From positions 1-13,938 of IMG/VR virus record IMGVR_UViG_2695420793_000015: a DNA stretch of 13,938 nucleotides. The stretch is one strand, 5' to 3'. The translations under genes and the position numbers were made by a program. Source of the stretch: a virus (taxonomy: Duplodnaviria; Heunggongvirae; Uroviricota; Caudoviricetes). This document shows, piece by piece, positions 2,336-12,436 of the stretch (positions are counted from its first letter, which is position 1; each line of letters opens with the position of its first letter). The notes beneath the pieces were generated by a model that saw only the letters and a program-made list of their open reading frames with translations, was not told the origin of the DNA and searched no databases.

Positions 2336-2866
2336 ATGAAAGGCTATATCACAGCAAGTGTAATTCTTGGAGCAGCGGCTATTTTTTCATCTCTCATAAT
2401 CTCTGGCAACATCTCCTTTAAAGATGAACATATTATTCAGTTATCTGGAGGAGCCATAAAACTTGGTGATGTTTATAAAGAAAATAAATTGATAAGTGCA
2501 AAGATTATTTTTCCAGATAATCAGGGTGAACAGATTCTTGTTGTCGACGGCAATCCTGAAAACTTTAAGGAGGATTTTCAGGAGAAATTAAATAAAGTAA
2601 TAAAAACTTTAAATGCGTCAAAGAAAAAAGATGAAGAGAAAGTTAGCCTGGATAATTTAAGTGTTATTGAAGAGTCTAAACTAGAGCTCGTTTCTGCGGT
2701 GCGTTACTCTGCTCAGTATGTTCCTATGTTTACTCTGACGCTGGACAAAAAAGAAATTACCATGCCTAAAAATACGGTAATATTTCCATTTGCCAGCGAT
2801 GAAACAGCTAAGTATTTAAATGAACAACAGCAAAAGTATAAAGATTCGTTGTTTCTGACTCGCTAA
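2336..2866 (+). CDS. Hypothetical membrane-anchored or secreted protein encoded by a low-GC moron; function unknown
   Basis: 176-aa ORF with an N-terminal hydrophobic segment (ITASVILGAAAIFSSLIISG) and a Lys/Glu/Asn-rich remainder. Its AT-rich composition contrasts sharply with the GC-rich tail genes on both sides, and it is bracketed by a promoter-like sequence and a strong intrinsic terminator. Confidence 0.7.
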   Translation: MKGYITASVILGAAAIFSSLIISGNISFKDEHIIQLSGGAIKLGDVYKENKLISAKIIFPDNQGEQILVVDGNPENFKEDFQEKLNKVIKTLNASKKKDEEKVSLDNLSVIEESKLELVSAVRYSAQYVPMFTLTLDKKEITMPKNTVIFPFASDETAKYLNEQQQKYKDSLFLTR

Positions 2867-2921: not shown

Positions 2922-4256
2922 GTGTATATGACGTGGAAAGACAGGCTTCAGGATGCGTCATTTCGAGGTGTGCCGTTTAAGGTTGAAGAAGAAAGTGCGG
3001 GAACCGGTCGCCGTGTGGAAACACATGAATACCCGAACCGCGACAAGCCCTATACCGAAGATCTGGGAAAAGTCACTTTCCGCCCGTCCATCACAGCTTA
3101 TGTGGTGGGAGATGACTGCTTTGACCAGCGCGATCGCCTGATTGAAGCGCTGAATAAACCCGGTCCCGGCACGCTTGTCCACCCGACATATGGTGAGCTG
3201 AAAGTCTGTGTTGACGGGGAAGTTCGGGTCAGCACATCGAAAAGTGAAGGGCGTATTGTCCGCTTTGACCTGAAGTTTGTCGAAGCAGGAGAACTCTCTT
3301 ACCCCACATCAGGTGCGGCGACGGCGCAGACGCTGATGTCATCCTGTTCTGCACTGGATGACAGCATCAGTGACAGCTTCAGTGGTTTCAGTATCGATGG
3401 TGTGGCGGATTTCGTGCAGAACGACGTTATCGGTAATGCCAGCATAATGCTGGGGTATGTTTCTGATGCGATGAAAGTGGTGGATTCTGCCGTATCGGAT
3501 GCCGCCAGGCTGTTGCAGGGGGATATCTCGGTACTTCTGCCGCCGCCATCGTCAGGCAAAAATTTCGTTGAGCAGGTGCAGAAAATGTGGCGTACCGGGA
3601 AACGCCTTTATGGTAACGCCAGCGACCTGGTCACCATGATCAAAACGCTTTCCGGTGTCAGCCTCGGCAGCGATCTGCAACCGCGCGGCGTCTGGAAAAC
3701 GGACAGTAAAACCACCGCCACGGCTACGCAGCAGCGTAATGTGGTTGCCAGCACCCTTCGTACGACCGCAATCAGCGAAGCGGCGTATGCCATCACCCGA
3801 TTGCCTGCGCCAACAACTTCCGCGGTGATGCAGAATTCCGCAGTGGGGCAGGCAACAACACCTGCGCAGAGCACTGGCTGGCCTTCCGTTACGCATCCGG
3901 CACTGAACAATGCACCGGCGGTGAAAAACACGGTTGACCTGCCGACGTGGGAAGAACTGACTGACATTCGCGACACACTGAATACGGCAATTGATAAGGA
4001 GTTGTCCCGTACAACCAGTGATGCGCTGTTTCTGGCGCTGCGCCGGGTGAAAGCAGATCTGAATGCGGATATCAACACGCGCCTTGAACAGTCTGCACGG
4101 ATCATTCAGCGCACACCGGATGAGGTTTTACCCGCGCTGGTGCTGGCGGCGACCTGGTTTGATAACGCGGCGCGTGACGCGGACATTATCCGGCGTAATG
4201 CCATTACGCATCCCGGCTTTGTGCCGGTGATCCCTCTGAAGGTGCCAGTGCAATGA
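2922..4256 (+). CDS. Phage DNA circulation protein (Mu gpN-like); true start probably ATG at 2928
   Basis: 444-aa ORF in the position between tape measure and baseplate hub, as in Mu-type tail modules. The N-terminal region resembles the DNA-circulation family. GGAG lies 5 nt before the 2928 ATG, and the 3' end overlaps the next gene (ATGA). Confidence 0.75.
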   Translation: MYMTWKDRLQDASFRGVPFKVEEESAGTGRRVETHEYPNRDKPYTEDLGKVTFRPSITAYVVGDDCFDQRDRLIEALNKPGPGTLVHPTYGELKVCVDGEVRVSTSKSEGRIVRFDLKFVEAGELSYPTSGAATAQTLMSSCSALDDSISDSFSGFSIDGVADFVQNDVIGNASIMLGYVSDAMKVVDSAVSDAARLLQGDISVLLPPPSSGKNFVEQVQKMWRTGKRLYGNASDLVTMIKTLSGVSLGSDLQPRGVWKTDSKTTATATQQRNVVASTLRTTAISEAAYAITRLPAPTTSAVMQNSAVGQATTPAQSTGWPSVTHPALNNAPAVKNTVDLPTWEELTDIRDTLNTAIDKELSRTTSDALFLALRRVKADLNADINTRLEQSARIIQRTPDEVLPALVLAATWFDNAARDADIIRRNAITHPGFVPVIPLKVPVQ

Positions 4257-5332
4257 ACGACAATGTCACGCTACGGGTAAATGGCCGGGAGTGGAATGGC
4301 TGGACATCGGTACGCATCGGTGCCGGTATTGAACGGCTGGCGCGGGATTTCAGTGTGGAGATCACCCGACAGTGGCCGGGAGATGAGGGTATCACCACGC
4401 TTCAGCCGCGCATTAAAAACGGTTCAAAAGTGGAGGTGCTGATTGGTGATGAGCTGGTGATCACCGGCTGGGTGGAGGCGACGCCCGTTCGTTACGATGC
4501 CCGTTCGGTCAGCACCGGTATTGCCGGACGCAGTCTGACCGCTGACCTGATTGACTGTGCAGCCGAACCGACACAGTTTAACGGACGATCGCTGGTACAG
4601 ATTGCGCAGGCGCTTGCTGCGCCTTTCGGCATTGAGGTGGTGAACAACAGTGCGCCGTCGGGTGTTATTCCTGATGTCCAGCCTGATCACGGCGAAACGG
4701 TGATTGAGGTGATCAACAAAATACTCGGTCAGCAGCAGGCACTGGCTTACGACGACCCGCACGGCAGGCTGGTGATTGGCGGTATTGGCTCAACGCGGGC
4801 ACATACCGCGCTGGTACTTGGGGAAAATATCCTTTCCTGTGATACGGAGAAGAGTATCCGGGAGCGGTTTTCTGTTTACCAGGTGGCGGGGCAGCGTGCC
4901 GGAAACGACGATGATTTCGGTGAGGCCACCACCACCGCGCTGCGGGCCCGCACAGAGGACGCATTTATTGCCCGTTACCGTCCGATGTATATCAGGCAGA
5001 CAGGGCAGGCTACGGGGGCAGGCTGTATTGCCCGTGCGGACTTTGAAGCCCGACAACGGGCGGCGCGGACGGATGAAACCACCTATGTGGTTCAGGGCTG
5101 GCGACAGGGTAACGGTACGCTGTGGCAGCCCAACCAGCGGGTGATTGTCTTCGATCCGGTCTGTGGTTTCGACAATACCGAACTGCTTGTCTCGGAAGTC
5201 ACGTTTACTCAGGACCAGAACGGCACCCTGACGGAAATCCGTGTCGGCCCGCCTGATGCTTATCTGCCTGAACCTGAAGCCCCCGGCGCGCGGAAAAAGA
5301 AAAAAGCCAGAGTACAGGAGGACCCGTTCTGA
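4253..5332 (+). CDS. Baseplate hub protein (Mu gpP/gp44-like, P2 gpD-like)
   Basis: 359-aa ORF, translationally coupled on both sides, in the conserved position after the DNA circulation gene. Confidence 0.75.
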   Translation: MNDNVTLRVNGREWNGWTSVRIGAGIERLARDFSVEITRQWPGDEGITTLQPRIKNGSKVEVLIGDELVITGWVEATPVRYDARSVSTGIAGRSLTADLIDCAAEPTQFNGRSLVQIAQALAAPFGIEVVNNSAPSGVIPDVQPDHGETVIEVINKILGQQQALAYDDPHGRLVIGGIGSTRAHTALVLGENILSCDTEKSIRERFSVYQVAGQRAGNDDDFGEATTTALRARTEDAFIARYRPMYIRQTGQATGAGCIARADFEARQRAARTDETTYVVQGWRQGNGTLWQPNQRVIVFDPVCGFDNTELLVSEVTFTQDQNGTLTEIRVGPPDAYLPEPEAPGARKKKKARVQEDPF

Positions 5333-5880
5333 TGAGGACGATTGAAGCCATGCAGCGACAACTCCTCGGCCTGATTGGGCGGGCGGTGGTGAAAAGCATC
5401 AGTGCCGCCACGAAATGTCAGACCGTGGATGTGTCCCTGATTGCCGGTGAACCCAAAGCCGGGGTTGAACATCTTGAACCCTACGGTTTTACCGCAAGGG
5501 CAAACAGCGGTGCGGAAGCGGTGGTGTTGTTTCCGGATGGCGACCGTTCTCATGCGGTGGTTGTTACGGTGTCGGACCGTCGCTACCGCCTGAAAGGGCT
5601 GCAAACGGGGGAGGTGGCTGTCTATGACGATCAGGGGCAGTCCGTGACGCTGACCCGGGAGGGGATCGTGGTGGACGGTGCAGGTAAAACGATCACGTTT
5701 CGCAATGCGCCCAGAGCACGTTTTGAAATGGACCTGGAAGTGACCGGACAGGTGAAAGACCTGTGCGACTCCGGCGGCACCACCATGTCAGCGATGCGGC
5801 TTGCCTATAACGGGCATCGTCACAGAGAGAACGGTCAGGGCAGTAACACCGACAAACCTGATAAAGCGATGGAGGCATGA
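5332..5880 (+). CDS. Baseplate assembly / spike protein V (Mu gp45-like)
   Basis: 182-aa ORF whose sequence (…VVLFPDGDRSHAVVV…GEVAVYDDQGQSVTLTREGIVVDGAGKTITF…) fits the gpV spike family. Stop and start overlap (TGATG). Confidence 0.8.
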   Translation: MRTIEAMQRQLLGLIGRAVVKSISAATKCQTVDVSLIAGEPKAGVEHLEPYGFTARANSGAEAVVLFPDGDRSHAVVVTVSDRRYRLKGLQTGEVAVYDDQGQSVTLTREGIVVDGAGKTITFRNAPRARFEMDLEVTGQVKDLCDSGGTTMSAMRLAYNGHRHRENGQGSNTDKPDKAMEA

Positions 5881-6305
5881 TGGAACTGTGGCTGACGGTG
5901 AACGGTAAACGCACCTGCGCCAGCGCACCGCTGGATCCGCTGACCCGCGCCGTGGTGATTTCCCTGTTTACCTGGCGGCGGGCGGAGCCTGATGACAACG
6001 CCGACGTCCCGATGGGATGGTGGGGGGATACCTGGCCTGCGGTACCGAATGACCGTTACGGCTCCCGACTGTGGCTGCTTCAGCGCAGCAAACTGACCAA
6101 TCAGCTGGTGCAGACGGTAAGGGGGTATATCCGCGAATGCCTGCAATGGATGATTGATGACGGCGTGGTGTCCCGTATTGATCTGGATATCCGCCGCACC
6201 GGGATTAATGAACTGGGTAACAGTATCACTCTCTGGCGTCGTGACGGACCGGTAATGATTTCTTTTGATGATCTGTGGAGTGCGATAACGCATGGCGGAC
6301 AGTGA
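5877..6305 (+). CDS. Baseplate protein (Mu gp46-like, P2 gpW-like)
   Basis: 142-aa ORF coupled to its neighbours (ATGATG overlap), in the conserved position between the spike and J-like genes. Confidence 0.7.
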   Translation: MMELWLTVNGKRTCASAPLDPLTRAVVISLFTWRRAEPDDNADVPMGWWGDTWPAVPNDRYGSRLWLLQRSKLTNQLVQTVRGYIRECLQWMIDDGVVSRIDLDIRRTGINELGNSITLWRRDGPVMISFDDLWSAITHGGQ

Positions 6306-7350
6306 ATTTCAGCGCCCGACGCTGGCAGAAAATATCAGTATGCTCCGTAACGATTTATTCGCCAGGCTGGACGTCAGCGACACGCTCCGGCGCATGGATG
6401 AAGACGTGCGGGCAAAGGTGTATGCGGCGGCGCTGCATACGGTTTACGGGTACATCGATTATCTGGCAATGAACATGCTGCCTGACCTGTGCGATGAGTC
6501 CTGGCTGGCGCGACATGCTGCGATGAAACGGTGTCCGCGCAAGGGGGCCACGGCTGCCAGCGGGTATATGCGCTGGGAAGGTGTCAGCGATGGCCTGAAG
6601 GTGACTGCCGGGAGCGTGATTCAGCGCGATGACCTGGTTCAGTACACGGCAACTGCCGATGCAACCAGCTCCGGTGGTGTCCTGCGTGTGCCGATCACTT
6701 GCTCAACTACAGGCGCGGTCGGTAACGCTGACGACGGTACGGCATTAATCCTGGTCACGCCGGTGAATGGTCTGCCGTCTTCCGGTGTGGCTGACACCCT
6801 TACAGGCGGATTTGATACTGAAGAGCTGGAAACGTGGCGCGCCCGCGTCATTGAGCGGTATTACTGGACGCCTCAGGGCGGGGCTGACGGGGACTATGTC
6901 GTCTGGGCTAAAGAAGTGCCCGGCATTACCCGCGCATGGACATACCGACACTGGATGGGAACGGGGACTGTCGGTGTGATGATTGCCAGCAGTGACCTGA
7001 TTAATCCCATTCCGGAAGAATCAACGGAAACGGCGGCAAGACAACATATCGAGCCACTGGCCCCGGTGGCAGGCTCTGATTTGTATGTGTTCAGGCCGGT
7101 GGCACATACGGTGGATTTTCATATCCGTGTGACGCCGGACACACCGGAAATACGGGCTGCAATCACCGCGGAGTTGCGTTCGTTCCTGCTGCGTGATGGT
7201 TATCCGCAGGGAGAACTGAAGGTGTCACGTATCAGTGAAGCGATTTCCGGTGCGAACGGGGAATACAGCCATCAGTTGCTTGCACCGGCGGACAATATCT
7301 CCATTGCAAAAAATGAACTGGCGGTTCTGGGGACGATTTCATGGACGTGA
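6292..7350 (+). CDS. Baseplate J-like protein (Mu gp47-like)
   Basis: 352-aa ORF of typical baseplate-J size, in the conserved position, overlapping both neighbours. Confidence 0.8.
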
Positions 7351-7925
7351 CAAACGATGATTACATCCGTCTGTTGTCGGCACTGCTGCCGCCCGGTCCG
7401 GCGTGGTCAGCCAGCGATCCGGCGATTGCAGGTGCGGCACCGTCATTAACCCGTGTTCATCAGCGTGCGGATGCCCTGATGCGGGAGCTGGATCCGCGCA
7501 CCACCACTGAACTGATAAACCGCTGGGAGCGTCTGTGCGGTCTGCCGGATGAATGTATTCCCGCAGGGACACAGACCCTTCGCCAGCGTCAGCAACGGCT
7601 GGATGCGAAGGTTAATCTGGCGGGCGGCATCAATGAGGATTTTTACCTTGCACAGCTTGCTGCCCTGGGCAGACCAGATGCCGCCATCACGCGATACGAC
7701 AAAAGCACGTTCACCTGCTCATCGGCCTGTACTGACGCTGTGAATGCGCCGGAATGGCGGTATTACTGGCAGGTCAACATGCCAGCCGCCACCAACACCA
7801 CCTGGATGACATGTGGCGATCCCTGTGATTCCGCACTGCGTATCTGGGGCGACACCGTTGTCGAGTGCGTGCTTAACAAACTCTGCCCTTCGCATACCTA
7901 CGTAATTTTTAAATATCCGGAGTAA
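7341..7925 (+). CDS. Tail protein, Mu gp48-like / P2 gpI-like (DUF2313-type)
   Basis: 194-aa ORF directly upstream of the tail fibre gene, translationally coupled to the J-like gene. Confidence 0.7.
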
Positions 7926-7928
7926 TCC

Positions 7929-8738
7929 ATGCATCGTATAGACACGAAAACCGCGCAGAAGGATAAGTTCGGCGCGGGTAAGAACGGTTTTACCCGTGGT
8001 AACCCCCAGACCGGCACACCTGCCACCGATCTGGATGATGACTACTTTGACATGTTGCAGGAAGAACTTTGTAGCGTGGTGGAGGCCTCCGGTGCCAGCC
8101 TGGAGAAAGGGCGGCATGACCAGCTGCTTACCGCACTTCGTGCGCTGCTGTTAAGCCGCAAGAATCCGTTTGGCGATATCAAATCGGATGGCACTGTGCA
8201 AACGGCTCTCGAAAACCTTCGTTTGGGGGCAGGCGCTCCAGCTATCGGAATTCCGTTCTTCTGGCCGTCCACAGCGATGCCAAATACAGTGATAGATGAG
8301 TGGTCAGATATGGTGTTTCTGAAATTCAACGGTGCGACATTTTCGGCAACAACTTATCCGAAGCTGGCGAAGGTGATCCCCAGCTTGACGCTAACCGAAG
8401 CTCGTGGTGAGTTTCCGCGTATTTGGGATGATGGGCGAGGTGTAGATGTCGGGCGCGCACTAATGAGCGCACAGGGTGATGCTATGAGAAATATCTCTGG
8501 AACAGTTCGGCTAGCATCCAACTCATATAATCAAAATACAGCAAGGCAAATGACGGGGGCATTTGGATGGAGTGACTCATCGGCTGGAGATGTTACTAAT
8601 TTTTCACTTACAGCTGCATCAAACACATCTAACTATAAAAATGGGGGGTTTACATTTGATTCTTCAACACAGGTTCCAACGGCCTTGGAGAATCGACCGA
8701 GAAACATTGCTTTTAACTTTCTTGTAAGGGCTAAATAA
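7929..8738 (+). CDS. Tail fibre protein (Mu S-like): constant N-terminal part plus the currently expressed variable C-terminal cassette
   Basis: 269-aa ORF with a conserved tail-fibre N-terminus (…[38 protein letters not shown]…) and a Ser/Thr/Asn/Gly-rich C-terminus. GGAG precedes the ATG. A recombination site lies inside the gene at 8206-8231. Confidence 0.85.
8206..8231. repeat. Putative left crossover site of the invertible segment (hix/gix-like 12-2-12: CTCTCGAAAACC-TT-CGTTTGGGGGCA)
   Basis: The half-site TCTCGAAAACC closely resembles Hin/Gin half-sites (TTCTTGAAAACC / TTCCTGTAAACC). The central TT occupies codon positions 2-3 of the stf frame, the same register as in the partner site. 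Confidence 0.55.
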
Positions 8739-9331
8739 TGAAACCTGTTTTTGACGAAAATGGACTGGCTACTGAACCTGGGGAAACTCGTTGTTTCTAT
8801 TACGACGCTGTGACGTCTGAATATATGGGATGGTCAGACGAATATATTAATCTGGGTGTCAGTATGCCAGGGCATTCAACAGATATTGATCCTGGTGATG
8901 AGGTGGCTGGAAAGATTCCAGTATTTACTGGGATTGGATGGGAGCAGCAGGAAGATCATCGCGGGGAAACAGTTTACTCAACTGAAAGTGGTGATGCATC
9001 AATGGTCGATTATATTGGTCCCATCAAGGATGGATTTACAAGCACTGCACCTTCAACGCCATATGATAAATGGGACGGTGAAAAATGGGTGACAGATACT
9101 GAGGCACAGAATATCGCCGTAGTAGAGGCGGCAGAAGCACAGCGGCAGTTTCTGATTGATACTGCAATGGCTTCCATTGGTCTGATCCAACTGAAATTAC
9201 AGGCAGGTCGGAAGCTGACTGAGGCAGAAACAACCCGACTTAACGCTGTGCTTGATTACATTGACGCGGTGACGGCAACAGATACCAGCACCGCACCGGA
9301 TGTCATCTGGCCTGAACTGCCGGAGGCGTAG
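8738..9331 (+). CDS. tfa: Tail fibre assembly protein (Mu U-like)
   Basis: 197-aa ORF whose ATG overlaps the stf stop (TAATG). The C-terminal region (…LDYIDAVTATDTSTAPDVIWPELPEA) is typical of tail-fibre assembly chaperones. Confidence 0.8.
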   Translation: MKPVFDENGLATEPGETRCFYYDAVTSEYMGWSDEYINLGVSMPGHSTDIDPGDEVAGKIPVFTGIGWEQQEDHRGETVYSTESGDASMVDYIGPIKDGFTSTAPSTPYDKWDGEKWVTDTEAQNIAVVEAAEAQRQFLIDTAMASIGLIQLKLQAGRKLTEAETTRLNAVLDYIDAVTATDTSTAPDVIWPELPEA

Positions 9332-9746
9332 GCCATTCAATATCTGGAGCACTGGAGGAATCAACCAGTTCCAGTGCGTCCAGATAATCCAGCCACAAAT
9401 TATATTGCGCCAGTTCCTCACCTTTCAGGCGACCAATCGCTGCTTTACCAGGCCATTGCTTACTGTATATGTATTCGTTGACCTGATTAATCAATTGCTG
9501 CTTTTCCAGTTCGGCTGCGGCAATTTGTTCCTCATGAGTTGGCGGTGGAATTTCCCCCCAGGTGGGAAGGCCATCATCACCCGCGATGCGTACTTTCCCT
9601 TGCAACGTTCTGTCTTCAATAAATTCCAGGTAAGTGTCATATGTCACTTCGACAATATCAGCAAGTTCCCATCCGGCCTGTTCATATTTCGCCACATCAT
9701 TTTTAGCGAAAAAACTGTTATTTGAGGCGCTATAAACTATTTCCAT
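9303..9746 (-). CDS. Alternative tail fibre assembly protein (Mu U'-like), convergent with tfa
   Basis: 147-aa minus-strand ORF with a Tfa-like C-terminus (…LWLDYLDALELVDSSSAPDIEWPTPPAVQAR). It overlaps the 3' end of the plus-strand tfa by 29 bp and sits directly downstream of the minus-strand fibre cassette. Confidence 0.8.
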   Translation of the reverse strand: MEIVYSASNNSFFAKNDVAKYEQAGWELADIVEVTYDTYLEFIEDRTLQGKVRIAGDDGLPTWGEIPPPTHEEQIAAAELEKQQLINQVNEYIYSKQWPGKAAIGRLKGEELAQYNLWLDYLDALELVDSSSAPDIEWPTPPAVQAR

Positions 9747-9747
9747 A

Positions 9748-10323
9748 TTAATACCCTACTGCAAGATAAAAAACAGATTCACCAGCATCCTGGGATGCTG
9801 TCCCTGGAACGCCAGACCATACCTTATTTATAAAAGCAAAACCTGTTTTACTGAGGTCTGACGCTCTGTACATTGGGCTGAATATCCAATAGTTGGATGC
9901 ATATGTTTGTCCGAAAACAATTCCATAGCACTGGTTTGTAAATGGCGTAGAAAATAATTTTCCACCATTACCAGCGATAGCACCGAATCGCATCTGGAAT
10001 CCATTCGGGAAATTAATTCCGCCTGCCGGTGAAGACCAGTAAGACATATCAGGTATTTGCCCAGCACTATTTCCCACGTTTTTTGTTGCAACGGTTCCTA
10101 ACCCAAGATTAGCTCTTGCGTCAGATTTATTTGTTAACTCATAAAGATTATTTGCCTTTTGAAGTGCTCCTGTTATGCGTAAATCATCACCAGCGGCAAC
10201 GGTTCCGACTGTCGTGCCCACATCCCTTTTCGCCGCTTCTCCTAAACCAACCTTTGAAATATTTTTCTGAATCAGGTGATATTTCGCCTCTTCTCCTGTT
10301 TTTACAACAGGAGAAGCACTCAT
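9748..10323 (-). CDS. Alternative tail fibre C-terminal cassette (Mu S'-like), silent in this orientation
   Basis: Gly/Asn/Ser-rich fibre-tip-like sequence on the minus strand. The part from about 10249 downward would fuse in frame to the constant stf N-terminus after inversion. The N-terminal 24 codons and the ATG at 10323 lie outside the segment and are probably not a real start. Confidence 0.7.
   Translation of the reverse strand: MSASPVVKTGEEAKYHLIQKNISKVGLGEAAKRDVGTTVGTVAAGDDLRITGALQKANNLYELTNKSDARANLGLGTVATKNVGNSAGQIPDMSYWSSPAGGINFPNGFQMRFGAIAGNGGKLFSTPFTNQCYGIVFGQTYASNYWIFSPMYRASDLSKTGFAFINKVWSGVPGTASQDAGESVFYLAVGY
10237..10262. repeat. Putative right crossover site of the invertible segment (TTCTCCTAAACC-AA-CCTTTGAAATAT)
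   Basis: The half-site TTCTCCTAAACC matches the left site's half-site at 9 of 11 positions and resembles gix. The central AA on + (TT on -) is in inverted orientation to the left site and in the same codon register in the minus-strand cassette frame. Confidence 0.5.
10290..10316. repeat. Perfect 27-bp palindrome (CTTCTCCTGTT-TTTAC-AACAGGAGAAG) overlapping the invertase ribosome-binding site
   Basis: Two 11-bp arms are exact reverse complements around a 5-bp centre. The right arm contains AGGAG, 9 nt upstream of the pin ATG. The arms share the CTTCTCCT motif with the right crossover half-site. Confidence 0.6.
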
Positions 10324-10885
10324 GATTTACGGGTATGTTCGTGTATCAACAAATCATCAGGATACAGAGTTGCAACGTCTTGCACTTGAGTCAGCTGGCT
10401 GTGAGCGAATTTATGAAGAATATGCCAGTGGCAGAACAGCTAATCGCCCTGTGTTAAAGGAATTAATTACGGTGATGAAAAGTGGAGATGAGTTGATTGT
10501 CTGGAAGTTAGATCGGATAGGGAGAAATGTGCTGCATGCGCTATTGATGTTTCAAAATCTGCACGAAAAAGGTGTTAATTTTCGGAGTATTACAGATGGC
10601 GTAGACCTGAAAACAGCAAGTGGTCGCTATAATTTCCGTAATATTCTTTCTGCTGCGCAGTATGAATCTGATTTGAATAGCGAGCGAACTTTAGCTGGTT
10701 TGGCTATTGCCAGATCCAAAGGCCGGATTGGTGGGCGTAGACCGAAGTTTAGCGACGAGCAGTGGCAACAGATGGGAGCGCTCATAGCGGCAGGGAAATC
10801 ACGGCGTTATGTTGCACGTATCTATAACGTTGGGCTATCAACCCTATATAAACGATTTCCTGTTACTGGCATTCAAACGAAATAA
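10322..10885 (+). CDS. pin: Serine-recombinase DNA invertase (Pin/Gin/Hin family)
   Basis: 187-aa ORF with the resolvase/invertase N-terminus (YVRVSTNHQ, catalytic Ser) and the characteristic C-terminal DNA-binding region (…GRIGGRRPKF…VGLSTLYKRF…). It lies beside the invertible tail-fibre segment. Confidence 0.9.
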   Translation: MIYGYVRVSTNHQDTELQRLALESAGCERIYEEYASGRTANRPVLKELITVMKSGDELIVWKLDRIGRNVLHALLMFQNLHEKGVNFRSITDGVDLKTASGRYNFRNILSAAQYESDLNSERTLAGLAIARSKGRIGGRRPKFSDEQWQQMGALIAAGKSRRYVARIYNVGLSTLYKRFPVTGIQTK

Positions 10886-10925
10886 TTTAAAAGCAATTTA
10901 AAGAGTTATTTGTCTAATGTTGGAA

Positions 10926-11028: not shown

Positions 11029-11277
11029 TTAGTGAACAAACCACTCGTCAGCAGATTCCCAGGTATCTTTCAGAGTCTCCTGAACAAAAGTTTTTGCAGA
11101 ATCCTTATCTGCGGTGCGTGTAACAGAAAGGCCATCGTTGCTGGTGGCTTTTACGATCACCTCTACATCGTCATAACGTTTACTGATGCGTCGGGTTAAT
11201 TCTTCCTTTAACGCATCCACAGCACCGGTTGGCATTTTAGTCATTTTTTCTTTGGCTATACAGATTTCAATACGCAT
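11029..11277 (-). CDS. dinI: DinI-family DNA-damage-inducible protein (prophage-encoded)
   Basis: 82-aa ORF ([31 protein letters not shown]…LSV…[17 protein letters not shown]) that aligns along its whole length with E. coli DinI as recalled from memory (MRIEVTIAK…GAIDAL…ELSRRI…QETWESADDWFV). Two LexA boxes lie upstream. Confidence 0.85.
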
Positions 11278-11290
11278 AAAAGTCCCTCTA

Positions 11291-11310
11291 TACTGTGTTT
11301 GTATACAGTA
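11291..11310. promoter_or_regulatory. LexA box 1 (TACTGT-GTTTGTAT-ACAGTA)
   Basis: Exact CTGT-N8-ACAG SOS-box architecture with the flanking TA/TA, upstream of the dinI-like gene and overlapping its predicted transcription start. Confidence 0.75.
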
Positions 11311-11313
11311 TCA

Positions 11314-11342
11314 TTTTTAACTGTATGGATAAACAGTGTCAA
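11314..11342 (-). promoter_or_regulatory. Putative SOS-regulated sigma70 promoter of the dinI-like gene (-35 TTGACA, 17-bp spacer, -10 TAAAAA)
   Basis: On the minus strand a perfect TTGACA (11342..11337), a 17-nt spacer coinciding with LexA box 2, then TAAAAA (11319..11314). The -35 overlaps the integrase stop codon. Confidence 0.4.
11319..11338. promoter_or_regulatory. LexA box 2 (AACTGT-ATGGATAA-ACAGTG)
   Basis: Second CTGT-N8-ACAG motif, 8 bp from box 1, lying in the spacer between the predicted -35 and -10 of the dinI promoter. Confidence 0.65.
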
Positions 11343-12436
11343 GAGGTCTTATTTCTGCTCCTTTGGAGCTCTTCAAAACGATTATGTAAAGATTTCGGAT
11401 ACAGTTCGGTATATACCTGCCATAGCACGTTTAATGAACGATGCCCTGTAACCTGGGCGACTTCCTCAATACTAAAACCAGCCTCAAATAAGCGACTTGC
11501 CCCTTCTCTACGCAAATCATGGTATCGCAGATCTTTAATACCTAATTTGCTTCTTACCCTCTGGAATCCCGCAGTAACAGAAGTGCTGTTATATGGAAAA
11601 ATGAATTCTGATTTTTTGGGTTGTCGTTGGACGATATCCCAGGCTTCCCCAAGCAAGGCTACTTTCATATGGTTGCCTTCCTTTTTACGTGGATCTTTCC
11701 TGTCTCTTACGAGTATGGATTTTTGTTCCTGATCGAGATCCTCCCATCGTAATCGGCATACTTCACCGATTCGCATACATGACCACACAGAAAATTTGAG
11801 GATATCAACGAACGGAATTTTTGAGCATTTATGTGTAGATCGTTGTTGAAGACCTTCAATGAGCATGTCCAGTTCATCAGATGCTGGTCTACGATTACGA
11901 CGATTTGATTTACCAATTAAACCAAGTTTAAGTAGATATGGACGAGCGGCTTTTGCTGGGTTTGATGTGTAATTAATTCCATATACAGGTTTGGCAGCAT
12001 CCAGAACACTGCCAAGATAACTAACATCGTGGCTAACTGTAGCTGGACCTGCACCAGCGTTGTTTCTTAGCCTGCAATGTTCAATTACGTCATTTTCTGT
12101 CAGTTCAGATAGTTTGATCGCGGAGATGTCACTATCCATAAGCAGTTCCAGCACATATCTTTTAGTACGGCCTGCTTTACCTCCGGCATTTGGGTCATTT
12201 AAATATTTGTGTAGTAAGTCACGGACTGTAAGTCCGTCAACTGCATTTGATGATGGAATGCCATATAGATCTAATTCCATCACTTTCTGTGTGCCCCATG
12301 TTTTGGCATGAGCATGTTTAGGGAATGTTTTGCTTTCCCTGTAAGTGATAACACCTTTTTCTTTGATAATCACATTACAGCGATAGCGTGGTGTGCCATC
12401 GGATTTTAGTCGTTTCTCTATGTTATAGTACGCCAT
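11339..12436 (-). CDS. int: Tyrosine site-specific integrase (dusA-associated type)
   Basis: 365-aa ORF with a tyrosine-recombinase catalytic region (…LRYHDLRREGASRLFEAG…VTGHRSLNVLWQVYTE…). It is the last prophage gene and is divergently oriented from dusA. A GAGG ribosome-binding site lies upstream. Confidence 0.9.
   Translation of the reverse strand: MAYYNIEKRLKSDGTPRYRCNVIIKEKGVITYRESKTFPKHAHAKTWGTQKVMELDLYGIPSSNAVDGLTVRDLLHKYLNDPNAGGKAGRTKRYVLELLMDSDISAIKLSELTENDVIEHCRLRNNAGAGPATVSHDVSYLGSVLDAAKPVYGINYTSNPAKAARPYLLKLGLIGKSNRRNRRPASDELDMLIEGLQQRSTHKCSKIPFVDILKFSVWSCMRIGEVCRLRWEDLDQEQKSILVRDRKDPRKKEGNHMKVALLGEAWDIVQRQPKKSEFIFPYNSTSVTAGFQRVRSKLGIKDLRYHDLRREGASRLFEAGFSIEEVAQVTGHRSLNVLWQVYTELYPKSLHNRFEELQRSRNKTS

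Follow-up and report, generated by a model that had tools for sequence, protein, structure and literature searches.

A tail-fibre inversion switch of the Pin/Gin type, very probably active, in an e14-like Escherichia coli prophage

The closest described counterpart of the locus considered here is the P segment of prophage e14 (ymfQ-stfP-tfaP-tfaE-stfE-pinE in E. coli K-12), for which whole-genome sequencing, PCR and qPCR have demonstrated inversion (PMC4272514, PMC12529663). In the G segment of phage Mu, inverted by Gin, a constant fibre part, Sc, is combined with one of two alternatives, Sv or Sv', each with its own chaperone (U or U'), the invertase gene lies just beyond the right site, the arms of the 26-bp sites read AAACC..GGTTT, and the switch comes after the Mu-type baseplate genes gp44-48; all of these features recur in the present locus. 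Mu differs in that its sites lie within 34-bp perfect repeats and have a GA/TC core, in that its fibres, at 504 aa, are much longer, and in its invertase (Gin being 50% identical to the one described below). [quoted passage not shown] The Min system of p15B has six sites and many states, whereas here only two sites stand above the matrix background. The H segment of Salmonella is inverted by Hin, a member of the same recombinase family acting on sites of the same 26-bp design, though it is a promoter and not coding cassettes that Hin flips, and the likeness is one of family and design.

The window (the whole 13,938-nt stretch of DNA that was analysed) comes from a complete prophage integrated at dusA, which has a Mu-like tail and shares about 98% identity with phage SKA5. 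Its arrangement is the long-known one of the e14 P segment, a point on which the preliminary description was silent: gene order and orientation pattern are identical, as is the left outer half-site, the TT core occupies codon positions 2-3, and the invertase gene is immediately past the right site (Table 1). A 2,029-bp segment (8220-10248) consists of two opposed cassettes for the fibre C-terminus, both paired with a Caudo_TAP chaperone of their own, the constant 5' part of the fibre gene lying outside it, as in the Mu G, P1 C and e14 P type of switch, and it is adjoined by an intact gene for a small serine invertase. Together with the two inverted 26-bp sites and exchange at their central dinucleotide, these are the traits of the Hin/Gin/Cin/Pin group. 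Taken as a whole, the sequence evidence makes it very probable that this e14-like E. coli prophage has an active two-state switch of that group which chooses its tail-fibre tip. The invertible tail-fibre switch noticed earlier is thus confirmed as real and its interpretation is supported; a Pin/Gin-type switch in this setting is an ordinary, well-understood feature. Departures from e14 (which is decayed and icd-integrated) are a weak right outer half-site, non-conservation of the second Fis-site position, a distinct invertase lineage and sequence divergence, with 26-37% identity for the cassettes, 55-60% for the chaperones and 54-56% for the invertase. In addition, the cassette in expressed position is of collar type, while the collar-type cassette of the K-12 reference e14 is the silent one.

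Table 1. Coordinates of the features of the switch (positions in the window).
Feature	Position	Strand	Description
Constant 5' fibre part	7929-8219	+	Codons 1-97, ends ...TALENL; outside the segment
Left crossover site	8206-8231		CTCTCGAAAACC TT CGTTTGGGGGCA; core TT 8218-8219; top matrix score in the window, 23.0 bits
Cassette A (expressed position at present)	8220-8738	+	Variable fibre C-terminus, 172 aa, tail-collar type
Chaperone for cassette A	8738-9331	+	TfaE-type, 197 aa; PF02413 1e-27; phrog_105 8e-80
Chaperone for cassette B	9303-9746	-	TfaP-type, 147 aa; PF02413 3e-29; phrog_188 5e-56
Cassette B (presumably silent at present)	9748-10248	-	Variable fibre C-terminus, 166 aa; phrog_1396 tail fibre 5e-27
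Right crossover site	10237-10262		TTCTCCTAAACC AA CCTTTGAAATAT; core AA 10249-10250; second matrix score, 19.4 bits
Leader of cassette B	10249-10323	-	25 codons; ATG at 10323 overlaps the pin start codon; frame open in the window
Hairpin	10290-10316	+	11-bp stem, encloses the pin Shine-Dalgarno AGGAG; RNA fold -24.8 kcal/mol, z = -4.15
pin, small serine DNA invertase	10322-10885	+	187 aa, catalytic Ser9; PF00239 3e-36, PF02796 7e-12
Candidate recombinational enhancer	10344-10406		Site I equivalent 10344-10358, site II equivalent 10392-10406; by positional homology to P1 cin

Both crossover sites, as first proposed, can be read directly as 26-bp hix/gix/pix-type sequences in inverted orientation, and with the right one taken as its reverse complement (ATATTTCAAAGG TT GGTTTAGGAGAA) they have an identical TT core in the same sense. 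They share at most 6 consecutive identical bases and are absent from the 25 longest pairs returned by a generic inverted-repeat finder, which missed them because only 15 of their 26 positions agree. Detection needed a family-specific position matrix derived from half-sites of e14, Mu and P1, one of the e14 half-sites in it being identical by homology to that of the window. When the 13.9-kb window was scanned with this matrix the two sites ranked first and second, the next best score being 10.2 bits. Markov simulation of 300 windows gave a single site scoring 19.4 bits or more in 0.3% of them, and a pair in none. The contribution of the two halves of the right site is very unequal, the inner half being consensus-like (17.7 bits) and the outer half, where e14 has TTTTCATAAACG, weak (1.7 bits); hixR likewise has a weak half-site with GG beside the core. 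The homologous left site of e14 is CTCTCGAAAACCTTGGTTTGGGAGAA. Breakpoints in alignments with PT62, SKA5, CH468 and L031 (see below) all fall at the left site, and those on the right side at 10236-10250. A promoter-like TTGAAA-18-GATATT overlapping the right site was set aside, matches of this kind being at chance level (7 found against 6.2 expected).

The cassettes match different fibre families. Pfam and NCBIfam hold no family for either form of the fibre, but sequence searches of PHROGs and PDB did give matches. For cassette A these are the tail-collar fibre families PHROG 523/3100, the short tail fibre PDB 9cuy (1e-13) and T4 gp37 (2xgf, 2e-6); it is 37% identical to e14 StfE, and its first 301 nt are present with 100% identity in E. 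coli CH468 on another fibre N-terminus, the identity starting from 8213. Homologues of cassette B carry the annotation 'gp53-like domain', and PT62, L031 and non-invertible relatives (L026-L030) have this cassette fused to the constant fibre part. That the two lack obvious similarity, as had been stated, is borne out by BLASTP (E = 0.027 over 42 aa, not significant), and from the unrelated tip sequences, with the analogy of Mu and P1, the tips would be expected to have two different receptor specificities and so to differ in host range. Each is accompanied by an assembly chaperone of its own, again as claimed, with both neighbours belonging to PF02413; they are 60% (cassette A) and 55% (cassette B) identical to e14 TfaE and TfaP respectively, and their genes converge with a 29-nt overlap, the same as for e14 tfaP and tfaE.

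The constant part, whose residues 1-97 match the N-terminus of e14 StfP in a by-eye comparison (window DNA up to 8236 being 96% identical to e14, and PHROG tail-fibre families matching residues 1-100), provides the cassette turned towards it with a promoter context, a start codon and the baseplate-proximal domain. In the plus-strand fibre ORF (7929-8738) the core TT forms codon positions 2-3 of Leu97, and in the minus-strand ORF (10323-9748) the core, at 10250-10249, forms codon positions 2-3 of Val25. The frame preservation that the preliminary description had read from the cores therefore stands: inversion in silico gives an uninterrupted 263-aa fibre with the junction ...TALENL-GLGEAAKRDVG....

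None of the complete E. coli genomes in the collection spans at least 80% of 7900-10900, so orientation was tested by junction queries and exact-protein look-up. When the window is inverted in silico, a public E. coli contig, L031 (Logan SRR25748344), aligns to it colinearly and gap-free along 7,028 bp (99.46% identity); against the actual window, 8218-10250 is inverted and 99.95% identical (1 mismatch in 2,033 bp). Both orientations of the same allele thus exist in nature. Both L031 junctions equal, base for base, those predicted from exchange at the central dinucleotide, and as positions 8217 and 8220 differ between the sites, this comparison places the exchange inside the TT core that they flank, and at the equivalent point of the right site, this being the crossover originally proposed. 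Sixteen contigs of public assemblies encode precisely the 263-aa fibre that inversion predicts, and PT62 has the predicted inverted junction (98.8%). SKA5 and GPEC1240 share the backbone of the window (97.7-98.9%) and have an invertase of the same lineage (the GPEC1240 pin region is 98.9% identical in DNA and the SKA5 invertase 100% in protein), but with a collar-type cassette/Tfa594 chaperone module in the opposite, presumably silent, orientation and with breakpoints at both sites. That opposite orientations in databases are errors of assembly, or products of RecA-dependent recombination at short inverted repeats, is hardly credible: L031 does come from a short-read assembly, but the identity shared by the sites, at 6 consecutive bases or fewer, is much too short for an assembler k-mer or for RecA, the junctions coincide exactly with the 2-bp core of sites of invertase consensus type, and complete genomes display the same kind of inversion.

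Inversion by the site-specific recombinase would, by analogy with the chemistry of its family, begin with binding of Pin dimers to both 26-bp sites and their synapsis. Through Ser9 it would then make staggered cuts, offset by 2 nt, in the two strands at the central TT. Once one half of the complex had turned through 180 degrees, religation would leave the segment flipped. With the core at codon positions 2-3 both ways, the head (codons 1-97) would be joined in frame to either cassette, to give a fibre of 269 aa with the collar-type cassette A, as at present, or of 263 aa with the gp53-like cassette B. As the chaperone gene turns with its cassette, the matching chaperone would be co-transcribed from the late operon, while the other cassette and its chaperone would face away from the promoter and be silent. 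A population of lysogens would hence be expected to yield two kinds of virion with different adsorption specificities.

The pin gene beside the segment is intact, being full length (187 aa, against about 185-195 aa for the group) with Resolvase and HTH_7 domains and with catalytic residues in place: R7, S9, D64, R65, R68, the GRxGGR arm and STLYK are invariant in comparison with PinE, Cin and Gin. The protein matches the Gin structure 3UJ3 (1e-56 over residues 1-181) and the DNA invertases of phrog_125 (1e-72), and is 54-56% identical to PinE in two alignments, 53% to Cin and 50% to Gin. Judged by its sequence, it is an invertase lineage distinct from that of e14 PinE, and its clade, marked by NHQDTELQ and the invariant E-helix YNFRNILSAAQYESDLNSERT, is widespread in Enterobacterales. 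Identity to the 'DNA invertase' of SKA5 is 100%, and the exact sequence is on at least 1,000 contigs. The hairpin that precedes the gene is kept in CH468 and in Kluyvera, Trabulsiella, Pseudocitrobacter, Shimwellia and Apirhabdus loci, its outermost pair showing a compensatory C-G to T-A change among them, and it is likely to act as a brake on translation of the invertase.

Whether it is mostly this Pin that works the switch is a separate matter. Other Pin/Gin-type invertases of the host, from P2-like or other cryptic prophages, could perform most of the inversion in trans, for which there is precedent in K-12, where PinQ, from prophage Qin, outdoes PinE in inverting the e14 segment (PMC12529663). 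GPEC1209 and GPEC1210 have the same e14-type prophage (identical protein accessions) with the segment oppositely oriented, though pinE is a truncated pseudogene in both; several such modules are typical of E. coli genomes (median 2, up to 10 matching places per genome), and the right outer half-site is weak. This is unlikely all the same, since Pin has its full length here, lacks none of the catalytic residues, has a conserved DNA-binding helix and recurs unchanged on so many contigs. Moreover, the unusual right-site core AAACC AA CCTTTT is directly 5' of most invertase genes of the lineage, across Enterobacterales genera, which suggests that site and enzyme are a cognate pair.

With inversion by the resident Pin as the favored reading, the one further point of some interest is its dependence on the Fis enhancer. 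Systems of the group depend on host Fis and on negative supercoiling, and their cis-acting enhancer, with a pair of Fis sites spaced 48 bp apart, usually falls within the beginning of the invertase gene. The P1 enhancer is annotated at cin +19 to +90, and P1, e14 and Mu have Fis-like pairs centred at +30 and +78, to which the window corresponds at 13 of 15 positions for site I and at 10-11 of 15 for site II, though a scan with the degenerate Fis consensus yields many chance matches. The site I equivalent falls in the sole stretch of suppressed synonymous variation (codons 2-13), in an analysis of 14 members of the lineage that is low-powered and uncorrected for phylogeny. At the site II equivalent, where P1, e14 and Mu retain GCAGGATG, the lineage has lost G(-7) and synonymous positions vary freely (their normalised entropy is 0.80, the gene mean 0.76), for which reason efficiency and Fis dependence are uncertain. 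The lineage's E-helix is invariant yet unlike that of the classical enzymes, including R at 106 and Y at 114 (Gin numbering). Position 106 is presumably that of Hin H107Y, if Hin numbering runs one ahead of that of Gin. Hin H107Y (PMC4817059) and Gin M114V (PMC3575834) are known activated mutants. A Pin that operates with no canonical Fis-bound enhancer, or with a different one, as a relative of the classical Gin, Cin and Pin whose regulation was naturally lost or altered, is nevertheless quite unlikely, in view of the well-preserved site I equivalent and of the degeneracy of Fis sites, through which a functional site may escape recognition from sequence. There is a similarly slender chance that the separate Pin clade, with its asymmetric right site, may have dropped or moved the two-site Fis enhancer; if so, it would provide a coding-sequence invertase that is naturally Fis-independent or under different control.

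Another departure from the two-state scheme concerns the short leader that keeps the minus-strand ORF open from the ATG at 10323 in both orientations (191 aa now, 197 aa when inverted). Its product could be made as a free fibre tip, perhaps one that blocks receptors in the manner of the chimeric StfE2 of e14, reported to block adsorption of phage T2 (PMC12529663), and the 191-aa version is called as a gene in public records. Such a role is highly improbable: a single base difference at 10256 creates a TGA that ends the leader frame in SKA5 and CM2010, the closest relatives, no Shine-Dalgarno precedes its ATG in the window sequence, the start is embedded in that of pin, no promoter-like site above chance faces the ORF, and the 197-aa version is absent from the protein collection searched. 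The leader is probably fortuitous, and with a stop codon in the nearest relatives its making the silent cassette an independent gene was rejected as the main reading.

The known mechanism is left unchanged by these findings; their value is for annotation. A short 'fibre' gene, often 'integrase' or 'hypothetical protein' in PGAP, can be recognized as the head of a probable two-state host-range switch, and the neighboring minus-strand 'hypothetical protein' as its presumably silent alternative tip. The comparisons show, too, that phages with unrelated tails (e14-like/Mu-like, P2-like and a third type) exchange the entire module of cassette and chaperone, with the crossover site as the exact boundary.

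The tail-fibre region of the window contains an invertible segment whose two orientations both occur naturally. The window forms the right end of a dusA-integrated prophage: its flanks match E. coli chromosomes at 98-99%, the whole prophage backbone is ~98% identical to that of Escherichia phage SKA5, and its serine invertase, Pin, has 100% protein identity to the SKA5 'DNA invertase'.

Features of the window, with the basis of assignment where one applies
Feature	Position	Strand	Remark
176-aa ORF	2336-2866		between tape-measure and DNA-circulation genes
Mu-type tail and baseplate protein ORFs	2922-7925
Of these, the ORFs upstream of Baseplate_J (DNA-circulation protein, gp44, gp45/V, gp46)			annotation of ~98% identical relatives
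Baseplate_J	6292-7350		confirmed on the window by Pfam
Mu Gp48/YmfQ	7341-7925		confirmed on the window by Pfam
Fibre gene, 269 aa	7929-8738
Left site	8206-8231		CTCTCGAAAACC TT CGTTTGGGGGCA
Tail-fibre assembly gene	8738-9331	+	PF02413; convergent with the next
Tail-fibre assembly gene	9303-9746	-	PF02413
Minus-strand ORF, 191 aa	9748-10323	-
Right site	10237-10262		TTCTCCTAAACC AA CCTTTGAAATAT
Hairpin	10290-10316		11-bp stem; z = -4.15
Resolvase/HTH_7 protein (Pin), 187 aa	10322-10885
DinI-like gene	11029-11277	-
LexA-box-like palindrome	11291-11310		TACTGTGTTTGTATACAGTA (CTG-N10-CAG)
Tyrosine integrase	11339-12436	-	dusA also lies beyond Pin

The preliminary description had proposed two inverted 26-bp hix/gix-like sites, a core dinucleotide placed so that inversion preserves frame, and an assembly chaperone for each of two dissimilar fibre C-termini, and it is right in all of these details. 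Compared as plain inverted repeats, the sites agree in only 15 of their 26 bases, and both were missing from the longest pairs of a generic repeat search. Scored with a position matrix from e14, Mu and P1 half-sites, one e14 half-site being identical by homology to the window's, left and right sites rank first and second in the window (23.0 and 19.4 bits; runner-up 10.2), and in 300 Markov-simulated windows 19.4 bits was attained once in 0.3% and twice in none. In both the fibre gene (at Leu97) and the minus-strand ORF (at Val25) the core TT fills codon positions 2-3, and in-silico inversion of 8220-10248 yields an unbroken 263-aa fibre (...TALENL-GLGEAAKRDVG...). The outer half of the right site is weak (1.7 bits). 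Since its core, AAACC AA CCTTTT, recurs directly upstream of most invertase genes of Pin's lineage, the right site is probably the cognate form for that lineage.

In a collection of 15 billion proteins the predicted 263-aa product was found exactly, on 16 contigs. One of these, L031 (a Logan assembly from SRR25748344), has the order fibre (263 aa), Tfa147 (+), Tfa197 (-), silent cassette and Resolvase187, and aligns gap-free with the in-silico inverted window at 99.46% over 7,028 bp. Against the actual window its flanks are colinear (99.1% and 99.7%), with 8218-10250 reverse-complemented at 99.95% (1 mismatch in 2,033 bp). Its junctions, CTCTCGAAAACC TT GGTTTAGGAGAA and TGCCCCCAAACG AA CCTTTGAAATAT, match prediction at each base and, because the parental sites differ at the core-adjacent bases 8217 and 8220, they map the exchange to the 2-bp core that had been proposed, a precision that is the hallmark of serine invertases. 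RecA-mediated recombination or misassembly as the source of the opposite orientations is excluded: the sites have at most 6 identical bases in a run, which by itself rules out assembly error, and the junctions are precise to the core.

Other strains add to this. In E. coli PT62 the segment is flipped, the junction matches the predicted one at 98.8%, and the recombinase is truncated. SKA5 and GPEC1240, with the window's backbone and invertase lineage, carry the collar-type cassette with its own 594-nt chaperone gene in silent orientation, their identity to the window ending at 8227 and 10236. GPEC1209 and GPEC1210, isolates from one study, share one e14-type prophage in which every protein accession is the same, but their segments are oppositely oriented, with the exchange falling inside TTGGTTTGGGAGAAG. 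Both have only a truncated pinE pseudogene, which implies that the inversion was performed by an invertase from another locus in the genome. Trans-acting invertases may likewise contribute to inversion in the window, e14 also being acted on by PinQ (PMC12529663).

The reading as an invertible switch is thus supported, and the switch is of the very well-known e14 P, Mu G and P1 C kind. In E. coli K-12, the P segment of e14 has the same arrangement, ymfQ-stfP-tfaP-tfaE(-)-stfE(-)-pinE, and its sites read CTCTCGAAAACCTTGGTTTGGGAGAA and TTCTCCCAAACCAACGTTTATGAAAA. The same logic underlies Mu G/Gin and P1 C/Cin. For e14, inversion was demonstrated by whole-genome sequencing and PCR (PMC4272514) and, when PinE or PinQ was supplied, by qPCR, the 1,797-bp segment being described together with its repeats (PMC12529663). 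By analogy, Pin dimers on both sites of the window would synapse, cleave at the TT core via Ser9, rotate and religate, flipping 8220-10248. Translation from the late tail operon would read the cassette then facing the constant head in frame, along with the neighbouring chaperone, and the other cassette and its chaperone, directed away from the promoter, would be silent; a change of host range would be the expected outcome, and the same analogy would make the switch depend on Fis.

Between the two cassettes BLASTP gives no significant similarity (E = 0.027), and likeness between the chaperones is confined to the C-terminal 68 residues. Cassette A, joined to the head in the window, is a tail-collar-type tip matching PHROG 523/3100, PDB 9cuy and T4 gp37, with 37% identity to e14 StfE. 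Homologues of cassette B, which itself matches PHROG 1396, bear the annotation 'gp53-like domain'. At 10256 the window has G where SKA5 and CM2010 have C, so that a minus-strand TGA becomes TCA, opening a 25-codon leader and giving the silent cassette an ATG that overlaps the pin start codon (tCATGa). Independent expression of the minus-strand ORF through this leader is, however, unlikely, because the TGA shuts it in SKA5 and CM2010 and it has no ribosome-binding site.

Pin has Gin as its nearest PDB entry (3UJ3, 1e-56) and retains R7, S9, D64, R65, R68, the GRxGGR arm and the STLYK recognition helix. Its identity to PinE (54-56% in two alignments), Cin (53%) and Gin (50%) points to a lineage separate from the textbook invertases, with 14 relatives (65-82% identical) in Kluyvera, Trabulsiella, Pseudocitrobacter, Morganella, Erwinia, Citrobacter, Shimwellia and Apirhabdus. 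The E-helix YNFRNILSAAQYESDLNSERT, classically FFFHVMGALAEMERELIVERT, is invariant in CH468 and the twelve full-length relatives examined, and residues 101-123 (GRYNFRNILSAAQYESDLNSERT) show no variation among 14 sequences whose overall identity to Pin is only 64-82%. This helix differs from those of Gin, Cin and PinE at many positions, including 106 (Hin 107, if Hin numbering runs one ahead of Gin), here R, and 114, here Y. In Gin, the mutation M114V confers Fis independence (PMC3575834), and Hin H107Y is an activated mutant (PMC4817059). The P1 enhancer is annotated at +19..+90 of cin, and P1, e14 and Mu all have Fis-like 15-mers with their centres at +30 and +78. The window keeps 13/15 at the first and 10-11/15 at the second, with G(-7) lost; within the lineage, synonymous sites at the second vary freely while the peptide SAGCE is kept. 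Pin might accordingly work without the Fis-bound enhancer or under different control; this reading, the sole route to novelty in the switch, is unlikely. The hairpin enclosing the pin Shine-Dalgarno sequence is kept upstream of lineage invertases in several genera, its outermost pair compensatory (C-G here, T-A elsewhere), and probably limits invertase translation.

Modules of this type are exchanged among phage types at crossover sites. The same invertible modules lie within unrelated prophage tails in E. coli CH468 (L004, near tonB, 4244-6569) and E. coli MB22 (L008, 2428-5005). In CH468, cassette A, identical over its first 301 nt, follows a different fibre N-terminus; identity to the window begins precisely at the crossover site and amounts to 96.6% for the module as far as the first chaperone. 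MB22 has the CM2010 segment at 99.7% in a P2-like tail cluster. In five related prophages with the same baseplate (L026-L030, 4001-8792), the constant head and cassette B form a fixed gene for the 263-aa fibre, accompanied by one chaperone but no invertase. Downstream come genes for O-antigen modification (gtrA, glycosyltransferase, GT_STM0557, or acyltransferase) and then a different integrase.

The SKA5 counterpart of the 176-aa ORF is annotated as a hypothetical protein. The LexA-box-like palindrome precedes the DinI-like gene by 14-33 nt, with a promoter-like TTGACA-18-AAAAAT match directly upstream of the palindrome. In many E. coli genomes the NCBI pipeline labels the collar-tip fibre 'integrase', a systematic misannotation that extends to the fibre genes of the window, L001 (3030-3776) and GPEC1210 (3011-3757), and to the window's exact 269-aa protein (ELL2787359.1, KSY14385.1).
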